A DNA stretch of 64,000 bases from a virus (Duplodnaviria; Caudoviricetes). Where the stretch lies: the IMG/VR virus record IMGVR_UViG_3300037067_012088, positions 96,001 through 160,000 of that record; one strand, 5' to 3'. Within the stretch, counting starts at the first letter, position 1; every line of letters begins with the position of its first letter. The notes beneath the pieces were generated by a model. The model was not told where the DNA came from. It did no database searches and saw nothing but the letters and a program-made list of their open reading frames with translations. Position numbers and translations under genes: made by a program. Below are positions 1,217 through 62,539 of the stretch, one piece after another.

Positions 1217-1245
1217 TTGACCCCGCGACCCAAGTGTGGGATACT
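1217..1245 (+). promoter_or_regulatory. CAAG-class sigma70 promoter, leaderless
   Basis: TTGACC-ccgcgacc-CAAG-tgtgg-GATACT then ATG at 1249. Confidence 0.75.
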
Positions 1246-1248
1246 CGG

Positions 1249-1605
1249 ATGATGAAGATGGCTCCTGTCCAAGGTTACTCTGCCGGCATTCCGTGGGATA
1301 TGCACCTGCGCGCGTATGACGCCTACTGCAAAAAGTGGGGCGCTCAACCCGCGATGATTGATCTCGAAGGTCGCAACTGCCGTGGTGGGTTCGCCGATAC
1401 CGAACTCGACATGTTTATTCCCGGTTGGCGCGAAGAACTGAGTGAGAGGATTCGATTCCGTAGTCTGCTTAAACAGAGCCGCTCCGCGCTTGAATTGACC
1501 TTCAATACGGTTGAGTGCGATTCTCTCGACGCTCAGGGTAATCAGCTTCCGTGGTATGCCAATGCGAAACGAGTGGTTGAGGAAATCGATGCCGCACTCA
1601 AATGA
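1249..1605 (+). CDS. hypothetical phage protein
   Basis: ORF track 1039-1605; start reassigned to the ATG after the promoter. Confidence 0.75.
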   Translation: MMKMAPVQGYSAGIPWDMHLRAYDAYCKKWGAQPAMIDLEGRNCRGGFADTELDMFIPGWREELSERIRFRSLLKQSRSALELTFNTVECDSLDAQGNQLPWYANAKRVVEEIDAALK

Positions 1606-2093
1606 CCGACGACAAAAAGACCTACTACGACTACACGCCGAAGGAAAGGCTTCAGTGGCAACTGCCAGATATTCCTGTCGGTGCCTTCATCACCTTCGCG
1701 CGCGAGAAGCGTCCCTATCGTGTGCGCGCCCGCAGTGGCCGTTTCATCGTCTGCACCAAGCCTTTCAACCCCAAGAAGACCGTGCTCTACACTGTCATCG
1801 ATTTGGTCGAGAACGTGCGCGGCCCCGAAGACCTCGTGTTCGGCATGGGTGCGGAGACCGACCAGCAATGCTGGGATATGGTGGACCGACTTGACGGAAG
1901 AGATGCCAATCATCCGCAGGGGCTCGACGTGAGAGACTTGGCTCAGTGGGAAGAGGAGAAACACACGCTCACGAAAGACCTACAGAAGCTGGCTAAACCC
2001 GGTCGCTCGTTTCGCACGGAGGTGTCACATCGTCATCGTGTGGACTTGGACGTGGTGGGTATCCGCATCCCCAAATCGGGCAAGCCGTTTTGA
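1602..2093 (+). CDS. hypothetical phage protein
   Basis: ATGA overlap with the upstream gene; 163 aa. Confidence 0.8.
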   Translation: MTDDKKTYYDYTPKERLQWQLPDIPVGAFITFAREKRPYRVRARSGRFIVCTKPFNPKKTVLYTVIDLVENVRGPEDLVFGMGAETDQQCWDMVDRLDGRDANHPQGLDVRDLAQWEEEKHTLTKDLQKLAKPGRSFRTEVSHRHRVDLDVVGIRIPKSGKPF

Positions 2094-2094
2094 T

Positions 2095-2481
2095 ATGACA
2101 CCTCAAGCACAATGTATCGCCATTGCTGAAGCGTGTGACATTAGCACCGAAGCGTTCCGCTTTTGGTATATGTCTCATGGCGGAACCGAATGGAAGGAGT
2201 CTCCCCATTATCGCACAATGAGACAAGCCGAAGAAGCTATGGAGGGCGAATCTCACTGGTCTGAATGTAAGGCTGTTGAGTCCGTCCGCTCGCACCATAA
2301 TGTCCCTTCCTATCTCACCGATCTGAATGCCATGCATAGGGCAGAGCAGACACTAAGGGATATAGATCGTCGAGCGTATCGATCTATTCTCGCCGAGAAT
2401 ACTGATCTTTTTGACGCTGATGCTCAGACGAAGGCTGAAGCCTTTCTCCGTGCCCTCGACCTGTGGGACGACTTAAAATGA
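2095..2481 (+). CDS. hypothetical phage protein (PxYLTDLNAMHxAE family)
   Basis: Operon packing; VPSYLTDLNAMHRAE..AEAFLRAL motif. Confidence 0.75.
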   Translation: MTPQAQCIAIAEACDISTEAFRFWYMSHGGTEWKESPHYRTMRQAEEAMEGESHWSECKAVESVRSHHNVPSYLTDLNAMHRAEQTLRDIDRRAYRSILAENTDLFDADAQTKAEAFLRALDLWDDLK

Positions 2482-2804
2482 CATCTAAGACTTACACCCC
2501 TTCATTGGGCTTGGATTACGCCGTGTATGAGAGAACGAAGGCAACCGCATACGGATGGGGGAGTTGGGAATTGATCTCGGTCTTTCTCAACGAGAGGGAT
2601 GCTGAGAGATTCTGCCGGGAAGACGAGTGCGCCATCGCCGAAAGGAAGGTGTTCGTCACCGGGGAATGCTGGGAGCGTTGGCATACGCAAGAGCACAACG
2701 CAAGTCATGAAGGTGTTCGCAAGCTGTTCAAGGGATGTATCGAAAAATACAAGGACGCCCATATCACGGGCGCGTTGAGTCGGTATCAGCTCCCTGATTT
2801 ATGA
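2478..2804 (+). CDS. hypothetical protein
   Basis: Overlapping start/stop in operon. Confidence 0.7.
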   Translation: MTSKTYTPSLGLDYAVYERTKATAYGWGSWELISVFLNERDAERFCREDECAIAERKVFVTGECWERWHTQEHNASHEGVRKLFKGCIEKYKDAHITGALSRYQLPDL

Positions 2805-60170: not shown

Positions 60171-60333
60171 TCACCAACTCGGCACCGCACCCAGTTCACG
60201 CGCCCGCTTCAACCACTCCTTCTTGAGCACCGTATTGTAGGGGCTCTCCTTGGTGTCCCATATCTCCATGATCTCGTAGACGCAATCGAGGAGCGCGACC
60301 GCGTCTTGCTTGTCATCTCCGGAGCGAAAAAGG

Positions 60334-61269
60334 TCAGCGGGTTTGGTCATAAGCCTCCAGTATCACGTTGTCGCACCATGATTGATCAACCTTGTCGGGG
60401 AACGTTGACTTGGCTGCCAGTTCCTCGACCTCGGCGATAAGGTCGTTGAGGCGGACATCGAGCCCATCTGTCACGTAGTTGAGTCGGCCCTCCTTGACCG
60501 CGCGAATGAAGGGTGTCTCGGCAAGCGGGAATGAGAAGGTGCCGGTGTTAAAGAGGGTGCGCAACTGGTAACCCACGCGGAAGGAGTGAGACACAGCCTT
60601 GCGATCCTGCCCATCCATCGCATGTGCCGCTTTGACGCGCTCACCATACGAGTCTCTTACCTTCTCCATGATACCGAGAGCATAGGCGGGGGCGATGCCC
60701 GCAGTGAGTCCCTTCCCCACGACAGTGTAAACGCGCTTATCGGCGTTGCGGTCGAGCAGATTCTCACCCTTGGTGGTATGGGGTAGCTCGGGGAGACGAC
60801 TCCATTCTTGACCCAACTTGGCCACACCATCCGCTATCATGCCTTCGAGCACCTTGATGACGGCCTCAACGGTGCCCATACGGTCAGCGCGCAACCCGTA
60901 TTTTGCGGCCATACTGCGACTAAAGCCGCACATTCCAGACATGCTCTTGGTATAGAATCGATGACGCTCGCGACGAAGGGTATCGAAGGTGAGAGAGGTC
61001 TGATATACCGCCGAATCGGGACTATGTAGCATACAAAGAGCCACATCCTCGCCACGTGAGGCTAGGGCCATGAACTCTTGGAGCGCGAATGACTCGAACT
61101 CAGTCTTGACGGACCCGGACTCGTCCTTGGTGTTAACGTTGCGAGGAGCGCGCAGGAGAAGGCACTCGTGCAGTGCGGGGAGATGGATGGCTTTGTGGTC
61201 AACGTCCGAGAGCGGATTGTCGAGCCCATACATGCGGGAACCGTGGAGGGTCTTGGCGAGAATGGTCAC
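60334..61269 (-). CDS. Pol-beta-superfamily nucleotidyltransferase (T4 NrdC.11-like)
   Basis: HGSRMYGL..SDVD, KYG, K..SH..R, F..AVK.G. Confidence 0.8.
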   Translation of the reverse strand: MTILAKTLHGSRMYGLDNPLSDVDHKAIHLPALHECLLLRAPRNVNTKDESGSVKTEFESFALQEFMALASRGEDVALCMLHSPDSAVYQTSLTFDTLRRERHRFYTKSMSGMCGFSRSMAAKYGLRADRMGTVEAVIKVLEGMIADGVAKLGQEWSRLPELPHTTKGENLLDRNADKRVYTVVGKGLTAGIAPAYALGIMEKVRDSYGERVKAAHAMDGQDRKAVSHSFRVGYQLRTLFNTGTFSFPLAETPFIRAVKEGRLNYVTDGLDVRLNDLIAEVEELAAKSTFPDKVDQSWCDNVILEAYDQTR

Positions 61270-61416
61270 TCCTCATCCTCCTCTATCTCCTGCATGAAGT
61301 GGGCTTCGATGGCGTCCTCCAGCTTGAGACCACAATCCATACAGTAGGTCTCGGAATAGGGACCATCGGATACCCATGAGTGGTCGTCGAGAGAAGGGCA
61401 GATGCGTTTGGGCATG

Positions 61417-62031
61417 TTAGTCGCAGTAGTCCTGTTGCACCACTTCCCTGCTCGGCCAAAGCATCGCAGTCAGCTTCCCATATCCCGGATACGCCGCTCC
61501 CGTGTCGATCATCGCAAAGGTCTCGGTGACGCGAGGCTCCTTCTCCTTGTTGTGCCCCAGAATACGGTATAGTCCGTCCTTGGGATAGGAGTAGTCGCGA
61601 CACCACAGGGCGTCTTGAATCGAGTGTTGGGATTCGGATGTGATTAACCCGTGGCCCGTATGGGATATCAGAAGGTCGGGATACTCAGGCGGGATGATAT
61701 GAAGAGGAAGGGCCTTCATCCACATCACGACCTCGCGGGGAACGCGCCCGTGCCACGACTTGATGGTCTTGGTGCCGCCGTTCTGCTTCCACGTGCCCGG
61801 GATATACTCCATACCCGAAGTATAGTGGTCAACAAGAAGGTGCTCATGATTCCCCATAACGCACTGGACGCGATTCTTCATCACCCACTCAACAACGCTG
61901 CGACTGTCGGGGCCGCGATCCACGAGGTCACCAAGAAGGATTGGCGTATGGTCTGGATAACGGGTGACCAGCGCGAACAGGGTCTTGGCCGCGCCATGAA
62001 TGTCGCCTATGACGATAAGGGGTTTACTCAT
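61417..62031 (-). CDS. Ser/Thr protein phosphatase (PPP/NinI-like)
   Basis: GDIHG, GDLVDRG, GNHE, IDTG. Confidence 0.92.
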   Translation of the reverse strand: MSKPLIVIGDIHGAAKTLFALVTRYPDHTPILLGDLVDRGPDSRSVVEWVMKNRVQCVMGNHEHLLVDHYTSGMEYIPGTWKQNGGTKTIKSWHGRVPREVVMWMKALPLHIIPPEYPDLLISHTGHGLITSESQHSIQDALWCRDYSYPKDGLYRILGHNKEKEPRVTETFAMIDTGAAYPGYGKLTAMLWPSREVVQQDYCD

Positions 62032-62035
62032 CCTC

Positions 62036-62539
62036 TCAATTCTGTCCGACTTGCCTGCCGGTGCCAAGGCTTACTTTGCACCGTCCCACGAAGTCAACTG
62101 CGCTAATCTCGTTATACCCCTCTTCGCGCAGGTAGGTGGTCTCAACCGTCCAGCCTCCCAGAAACGATACGTGGATGATAAGGTCCTTCTCGTCCGTCGC
62201 GACCAAGGACTGCGCCACCTCATACATGGCCTTCATGTTGTCGGCGTTCAGGTCTTCGTAACCGGCGTTGGCGATGTGGTCGGTTAGCCAAGGCCACTGG
62301 TTGCCCGCTCTATCGTCAACCTCGATGATGGAGGTAAGCATGAAAAGGGTCTCGGTTAGCTTGCCTTCGCCGTCCGTCAACTCCTCCCCGTCGCCCACGA
62401 TTTTGTCGCGGGTCACTGAGTAGTAGAGGCCGCCGAGCATGGGGTCAAGGGAAAGACATCCAAGAGACGACATGGACTCGGAGAACGCATAAAACGCACC
62501 CGGCTTGAGGATGACGGATGAGATGTGGGTAGGGGTCAC
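62036..62539 (-). CDS. acidic hypothetical protein
   Basis: GTGA overlap. Confidence 0.7.

Follow-up and report, generated by a model that had tools for sequence, protein, structure and literature searches.

The early promoters of phage T4 are sigma70 promoters with extra conserved positions, mainly UP-like A-tracts and positions around the hexamers, and their mRNAs carry leaders; at T4 middle promoters the 9-bp MotA box, centered near −30, replaces the −35 hexamer. Elements have also been described within the spacer that separates the two hexamers. The Z-element lies at −22 to −18 (AACCT in T7 A1, AACAT in T7 A2), acts through the β′ zipper, and contributes, together with the −35 element, when the −10 element is non-consensus (Yuzenkova, Tadigotla, Severinov and Zenkin 2011, EMBO J 30:3766; PMC3173786). 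Another such element is a short AT-tract at −23 to −17, which is placed "5 base pairs upstream" of the −10 element and acts through sigma70 R451 (Warman et al. 2020, PMC7229825; also Singh et al. 2011, PMC3130263). Here we describe a spacer box, YAAG (Y, C or T), in the promoters of a Caudoviricetes phage known from a 191,387-bp record, IMGVR_UViG_3300037067_012088 (the source phage, G0). The analysis centered on a 64,000-nucleotide stretch of it (the window, bases 96001 to 160000 of the record); unless marked as genome coordinates, positions are those of the window. With the −10 hexamer placed at −12 to −7, on which the numbering of the box rests, the promoters read GAWTY (about −44), cTTGAC (−36 to −31), N9, YAAG (−21 to −18), N5, cANNNT (−12 to −7), 6 to 7 nt, and ATG. 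The box is best read, from sequence comparison, as a third promoter element, new in its strictness and its lineage-specific letters relative to the known Z-element and AT-tract contacts.

In the window, TTGAC-N9-CAAG is matched exactly 15 times where 0.43 would be expected, and none of 100 shuffles reached that count. A scan of the whole genome, which a sequence-only reading of the window had proposed, placed the pattern at 32 positions, compared with 1 for its reversal; a single site, present at both overlapping ends of the record, accounts for two of these, and 25 of the 32 lie on the gene-bearing minus strand. That reading had listed 13 promoters with CAAG in the spacer, and all of them proved real: 11 have an exact TTGAC, while in those at 38110 (TTGCC) and 62067 (TTGGC) CAAG-N5-(−10) is intact and an ATG still follows at 36 nt. 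Together with sites at 51256 (minus) and 55526 (minus), they bring the promoter-like sites in the window to 15. The pattern is also matched at 13368 (minus) and 51046 (plus), but without A−11 and T−7 these are unlikely to be promoters. Since 13368 is the sole match between 5.5 and 25 kb, the reported absence of the class from that interval holds. In 13 of the 15 promoter-like sites an ATG lies 35 to 38 nt after the first T of TTGAC, at about +1, indicating that the mRNAs are leaderless.

Two of the 15 sites are on the plus strand. The first, at 1217 to 1245 (cTTGACC-N8-CAAG-N5-GATACT), has ATG codons 32 and 35 nt from the first T of the −35 hexamer, which open reading frames (ORFs) of 118 and 117 amino acids (aa), and the second, at 4339 to 4367 (cTTGACG-N8-CAAG-N5-AATACT), has a leaderless ATG at an offset of 35 (109 aa). 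On the minus strand, leaderless ATG codons follow the promoters at 34114 to 34142 (cTTGACA-N8-CAAG-N5-CAATCT; offset 36, 129 aa), 40332 to 40360 (cTTGACC-N8-CAAG-N5-CAATCT; offset 35, 90 aa), 45966 to 45994 (cTTGACA-N8-CAAG-N5-CACTCT; offset 35, 103 aa), 55498 to 55526 (gTTGACG-N8-CAAG-N5-CAAGCT, one of the two sites absent from the earlier list; offset 35, 101 aa), and 57653 to 57681 (gTTGACA-N8-CAAG-N5-AAGGAT; offset 36, 96 aa). The variant −35 hexamer at 62039 to 62067 (cTTGGCA-N8-CAAG-N5-CAGAAT) likewise precedes a leaderless ATG (offset 36), that of a 204-aa metallophosphatase. The other variant, at 38082 to 38110 (cTTGCCT-N8-CAAG-N5-CATTCT; offset 36), precedes an ORF of 28 aa, and the promoter at 26987 to 27015 (gTTGACA-N8-CAAG-N5-CAATCT; offset 36) one of only 38 aa. 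ATG codons also follow at offset 35 behind 25131 to 25159 (cTTGACC-N8-CAAG-N5-CAGGAT; 119 aa) and behind 59354 to 59382 (cTTGACA-N8-CAAG-N5-TTGAGT, a very poor −10; 73 aa), and at offset 38 behind 59630 to 59658 (cTTGACC-N8-CAAG-N5-CAAGAT; 74 aa). A short leader is found at 52814 to 52842 (cTTGACA-N8-CAAG-N5-CATACT; offset 45, 76 aa), where the TGA of TTGAC (52840 to 52842) is the stop codon of an upstream 372-aa gene. At 51228 to 51256 (gTTGACA-N8-CAAG-N5-CAGAGT), the other site absent from the earlier list, the first long ORF begins at offset 67. A near-variant drives hsp20 (1049 to 1077, minus; TTGACA-N8-CAAA-N5-TAAGAT), with a 29-nt leader; CAAA at spacer positions 9 to 12 is as the sequence-only reading gave it.

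To view these sites free of the pattern that had defined them, an unbiased set was drawn from the genome: TTGAC, a 16- to 18-bp spacer, NANNNT, and then, 4 to 9 nt later, an ATG or GTG opening at least 45 codons. This design yielded 40 leaderless promoters in the source phage and 1 in its reversed genome. The 40 sites carry the features expected of predicted sigma70/sigmaA-type promoters (a TTGACA-like −35, a spacer of 17 ± 1 bp, A−11, and T−7). When all 40 were aligned on the −10 hexamer, positions −21 to −18 held 0.26, 0.63, 0.81, and 0.69 bits, with the rest of the spacer at background. YAAG occupies these positions in 19 of the 40, all with a 17-bp spacer, and the remaining 21 are box-less. 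Other positions divide along the same line. An upstream GAWTY at about −44/−43, 8 to 9 nt before the −35 hexamer, accompanies 11 of 19 box promoters and 2 of 21 box-less promoters (P = 0.002; for example, at 34151 to 34155, where it reads GATTT, and 40368 to 40372, where it reads GATTC, each upstream of a box promoter). C stands at −36 in 15 of 19 versus 8 of 21 (P = 0.012). The −10 hexamers of box promoters are poor, as had been noted before: C is at −12 in 11 of the 19, and T, the base there in 14 of 21 box-less promoters, in only 5 (P = 0.014). Consistent with such weakness, a generic TTGACA/TATAAT scan of 44 to 64 kb gave 10 sites against 8.8 expected, no excess, and recovered only two box promoters. 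We conclude that the box promoters are a real, statistically coherent class, separate from the box-less TTGACA/TAGGAT promoters.

Behind box promoters lie the replication module (DnaB-like helicase, primase, nuclease, PHP protein, and DnaE-type polymerase), the metallophosphatase, and many small ORFans, and box promoters also serve tRNA and noncoding RNA (ncRNA) units. By number and gene content, this would be the main class in the source phage that uses the host polymerase. The "middle" timing suggested by the sequence-only reading is not supported; for a class that makes up the majority of sigmaA-type promoters and has this range of genes, early or delayed-early expression is at least as likely.

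Box-less promoters, mostly TTGACA-N16/17-TAGGAT or TAAGAT, precede genes for sugar-nucleotide enzymes, a homing endonuclease, a lysozyme, and ORFans, and are grouped in a block that is syntenic between the source phage and a relative, G1. Examples are the leaderless TTGACA-N16-TAGGCT promoters at 10181 to 10208 (minus), inside this block, and at 29971 to 29998 (minus), which drives the lysozyme gene. That gene (29464 to 29961, minus) sits in an "early-looking" region, behind a box-less consensus promoter and remote from the structural genes. The block dominated by box-less promoters also contains TAGGG-N6-CCCTA palindromes, between 8412 and 20766 (genome 104412 to 116766). There are 8, 10, and 18 copies in the source phage, G1, and a second relative, G2, respectively (L043 to L063 in the relatives), against 0 to 1 for reversed-pattern controls, and the palindrome is unchanged across the three phages although their proteins are only 30 to 50% identical. 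These palindromes look like operators of a conserved dimeric regulator. The promoter at 25131 to 25159, said earlier to carry both motifs, has the CAAG box, but in place of the palindrome only two direct CCCTA half-sites in its spacer.

Several observations bear on what kind of signal the box is. Three strong promoters with 16-bp spacers (genome 40436 plus, 172324 minus, and 179433 minus) hold CAAG exactly 5 bp before the −10 hexamer, so it is the −10, and not the −35, that fixes the place of the box. It is asymmetric and 4 bp long; beyond CTTG/CAAG there is no complementarity, positions −32/−22 and −31/−23 being unpaired in most sites. No promoter with CAAG-N5-(−10) but without a −35-like hexamer was found. 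The box is present at promoters of noncoding units (the tRNA/ncRNA region) and of units with a leader, and since these have no leaderless ORF, it is a transcription signal and not a translation signal.

Other sources of the pattern were considered and set aside. Coding constraint was rejected, as most boxes lie in noncoding DNA past the end of the gene before them; genome-wide, the TGA inside the −35 TTGAC serves as that gene's stop codon in 8 of 27 box sites, and two further box promoters sit within its 3′ end. A divergent promoter, for which the inverted TTG would be the −35, was rejected because the bottom strand shows no A/T pattern where the −10 would have to lie. Sites of the IHF, FNR, or SoxR type we take to be unfit in spacing and letters. 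A link between GAWTY and CcrM-type methylation at GANTC was also rejected: only about half of the GAWTY elements are GANTC, GANTC is not depleted in the genome (952 versus 730 expected), and the beta-class N6-adenine methylase that the phage encodes (genome 190128 to 190895) falls far below the CcrM cutoff.

The source phage has small, tightly packed genes, mostly on the minus strand. One promoter with at least ∼70 bp of flank is repeated at both ends of the record (genome 107 to 124 and 191363 to 191380), from which it follows that the assembly, labeled linear, is circular or terminally redundant. Among 50,697 cultured-phage records, neither megablast of 15 kb nor tblastn with the terminase and portal found a close relative. 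The portal protein has 1847 relatives at E ≤ 1e-5 among 8000 metagenomic candidates scored, many on 100- to 210-kb contigs, which places the phage in a large uncultivated family; the closer relatives, on contigs of that size from Logan, NCBI, and JGI, have portals 52 to 82% identical. A single scan of genome contigs gave as its sole match a 5.6-kb contig in a Eubacteriales metagenome-assembled genome (43% identity), and single-protein scans of viral contigs with window genes gave no matches. TAGGAT-type −10 hexamers, pervasive leaderless starts, a weak BldN-like sigma match, and the atlas neighbors of a GDP-mannose-dehydratase-like protein, which are of mixed taxa with Actinomycetota frequent and are not decisive for the host, hint at an Actinomycetota host.

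Related genomes, whole or partial, were reached through alignments of the portal and of the DnaE-type polymerase. G1 (219 kb, 59% G+C; portal 47% identical) has 37 leaderless TTGAC promoters against 1 in the control, 24 of them with YAA[C/T] at −21 to −18, and its consensus is cTTGACA-N5-GTYYAAC-N5-cTAnnaT. In G010, whose polymerase is 50% identical, CAGG, CAGA, CAAG, or CAAA is found in 7 of 9 promoters. The box reads ccaGAA(N) in a group of 38% G+C and AAG(Y)C at locus L171, and at L162 CAAG lies two bases further upstream. G007 (203 kb, 39% G+C) has 49 promoters against none in the control, 36 with a 16-bp spacer, and a consensus of ttAAAAAAGA that reaches 1.47 bits; the G009 box is TTAAAAAA. 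In these two AT-rich relatives the A-tracts stand exactly at the position of the box. One 13-kb stretch of G007 (G007:C1:78055-91032; L232-L233) holds ∼25 leaderless promoters, about one per small gene, of the form TTGACA-N3-ttAAAAAAGA-N5-TATTAT with a 16-bp spacer. G2 (53% G+C) has only a weak MAAY tendency, and the structural-module loci of the relatives have almost no sigmaA-type promoters. Among control phages, the box is missing from the leaderless TTGAC promoters of the Thermus phage phiYS40, whose −10 is extended (TGn), and promoters of this design are nearly absent from Bxz1, phiCbK, and P23-45. Across these genomes the box is a trait of this phage family, fixed in position and lineage-specific in its letters.

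What reads the box can be approached from these features. Its position, anchoring to the −10, asymmetry, shortness, and link with weak −10 hexamers fit an element read within the polymerase-promoter complex, and we tentatively favor a reading in which the host RNA polymerase alone recognizes it in the phage's main host-polymerase promoter class, although we give this identification of the reader a little less than an even chance. The box would be read at a spacer contact point 4 to 5 bp upstream of the −10, the candidate contacts being the β′ zipper (the Z-element contact; Y47/R48 in E. coli numbering) or an arginine of sigma region 2/3 (E. coli R451). Recognition may involve the flexible pyrimidine-A step, the AA core, and one lineage-specific base. 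The contact would add binding and opening energy to promoters with a weak −10 (C at −12), and the mRNA would begin at or beside the start codon.

A number of points weigh against recognition by the host polymerase alone. At the R451 contact any AT-tract works, whereas the box of the source phage is as invariant as its −35; likewise, A or T at −18 is helpful in E. coli, whereas this box fixes G. The leaderless promoters of phiYS40 do without the box, so it is not a general need of leaderless promoters. The letters differ among sister phages (YAAG, YAAC, and CAGG), and such change is more suggestive of a sequence-specific reader that co-evolves with the box than of conserved parts of the polymerase. 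In addition, the box co-occurs with GAWTY and C−36, and the block-wise grouping of the box-less promoters suggests separately regulated classes. Finally, the consensus of the Z-element is "loose," single substitutions shifting activity less than 2-fold (PMC3173786).

The same observations lend some weight to a phage-encoded cofactor that sits on RNA polymerase and reads the box, perhaps along with GAWTY and C−36, an explanation that we regard as somewhat unlikely but serious. Such a cofactor would either enter with the virion or be expressed from box-less promoters, and it would redirect the host polymerase to phage promoters or strengthen it there in the manner of sigma appropriation or of a class II activator, box and reader co-evolving in each lineage. 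It would account for letters that are lineage-specific yet near-invariant within a genome and held at one conserved position; for the co-variation of the box with GAWTY, C−36, and, in the source phage, weaker core hexamers; for a box-less class with near-consensus hexamers that could fire first and that clusters in the block syntenic with G1; and for the restriction of the box to the family and its absence from phiYS40, Bxz1, phiCbK, and P23-45. Against it, the −35 and −10 of the G1 box promoters match the consensus, which ought to make an activator superfluous, an independent DNA-binding protein would have little to recognize in four asymmetric base pairs, and the constancy of the TAGGG-N6-CCCTA operator in the three phages indicates that protein-site pairs of this family need not drift. 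A broader version, in which a family of 150- to 220-kb phages has a third box at −24 to −18 that is read by a phage protein riding the host polymerase and whose letters shift with each lineage, we consider doubtful. An accessory factor had also been proposed by the sequence-only reading; the class that it described stands as a separate one, marked by GAWTY, C−36, non-T at −12, and a strict 17-bp spacer, whereas the analogy with MotA fails and the repressor site that it offered as an alternative is not supported.

The search for a reader protein also speaks against a cofactor, in that it produced no candidate. The only sigma factor in the source phage is of the extracytoplasmic function type, with two domains (sigma2 and sigma4) and the BldN-like match mentioned above; there is no second one. 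A search of the whole genome with the MotA and AsiA families (PF09158 and PF09010) returned nothing at E ≤ 1, a cutoff that very distant analogues could escape, and no WhiB homologue was found. Ten small ORFs common to the source phage and G1 and not in G2 had no Pfam match, and a phylogenetic profile for proteins present in box-bearing genomes and absent from G2 gave no convincing candidate. Helix-turn-helix (HTH) matches resembling sigma region 4 were rejected, as they belong to LAGLIDADG and Vsr homing endonucleases.

The homing-endonuclease-like genes in question are free-standing (genome 41554 to 42609, plus; 90978 to 91982, plus; and 121 to 1674, minus); two are paralogues with an HTH and a LAGLIDADG domain, and one has several HTH domains and a Vsr-like domain. 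Weak sigma region-4 matches arise from the HTH regions of these genes and could lead to their being taken for transcription factors. A LAGLIDADG insert of the intein type also occurs at residues 307 to 403 of a 1103-aa terminase-like protein (genome 77229 to 80540; L010:4229-7540, minus).

The dimeric repressor site also proposed by the sequence-only reading is, in our view, quite improbable. On this account a dimeric phage repressor or shutoff protein would bind the dyad CTTG-N11-CAAG as its operator, cover the −35 and the spacer, and switch the class off. The excess of C at −36 in box promoters (15 of 19 versus 8 of 21) would suit such a site, and in some promoters the symmetry extends to TTGAC-N7-GTCAA. 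The symmetry is nevertheless only 4 bp, three of which are the TTG of the −35, with −32/−22 and −31/−23 mostly non-complementary, and the TAAG variants show no compensating change. Promoters with a 16-bp spacer tie CAAG to the −10 and so alter the half-site spacing. The dyad is also not conserved in relatives: G010 has CAGG, and in G1 the box ends in C (YAAC) while C is still the commonest base at −36, which removes the argument from the dyad. That the shared letters are functionless leftovers of a copied promoter cassette is very improbable: the one-promoter-per-gene cassette layout and the upstream stop codons inside the −35 (8 of 27 sites) are what common descent would leave, but flanking spacer positions are at background while YAAG is invariant, and phages at 30 to 50% protein identity keep the position of the box with different letters.

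To our knowledge, what is known of bacterial spacer elements (the Z-element and the −18/AT-tract contact) comes solely from a small number of engineered promoters; such elements lack a defined consensus and are considered weak and loose. In the related phages described here, several genomes each have dozens of natural promoters with a box at that very position, conserved as strictly as the −35 and with letters that change by lineage. These promoters form a comparative data set and offer simple synthetic templates with which to ask whether −21 to −18 is read by the β′ zipper, by an arginine of sigma, or by a new phage factor, and how specific the contact can be. For annotation, the box can also serve as a practical marker of transcription units and leaderless starts in a widespread uncultivated phage family. 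If a phage-encoded reader were the true one, it would represent a new kind of promoter retargeting that leaves both canonical hexamers in place.

How the box compares with described systems depends on the system. Like the early promoters of T4, the box promoters occur in many copies before small, putatively early genes and would be host-polymerase promoters with more information than the host consensus; T4 early promoters, however, have no 4-bp box at −21 to −18, and their mRNAs are not leaderless. With T4 middle promoters they share an extra phage-specific box in otherwise sigma70-dependent promoters, which would set phage promoters apart from those of the host. The analogy with the MotA box, drawn in the sequence-only reading, fails in that no MotA or AsiA homologue was found and the source phage keeps the canonical TTGAC (with a one-letter variant in two sites), its box lying at −21 to −18. 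The AT-tract/R451 element is closer: it occupies the same place, 5 bp before the −10, and compensates for weak or cryptic −10 hexamers, and A-tracts stand there in G007 and G009. An AT-only tract is nonetheless found only in those two relatives and not in the source phage (C or T at −21, an invariant G at −18), in which the box marks the main promoter class.

The Z-element is the other close parallel. It, too, is a spacer site just upstream of the −10, anchored to it, asymmetric, with an AA core, and associated with a weak −10, and the promoters used to define it, T7 A1 and A2, are early promoters of a phage. The spacers of the three E. coli-type early promoters T7 A1, A2, and A3 (L220, phage T7 bases 400 to 800) hold AGT(N0-2)AAC 4 to 6 bp before the −10, in the stretch to which the name Z-element was later given in A1 and A2, and the GTCTAAC of A1 resembles the G1 consensus GTYYAAC, whereas YAAG of the source phage departs at the last base. 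The register of T7 A1 is also one base further from the −10 than that of this box, which, by further difference, never substitutes for the −35. The Z-element combines a loose consensus with modest effects, whereas YAAG is near-invariant and base specific and differs between sister phages.

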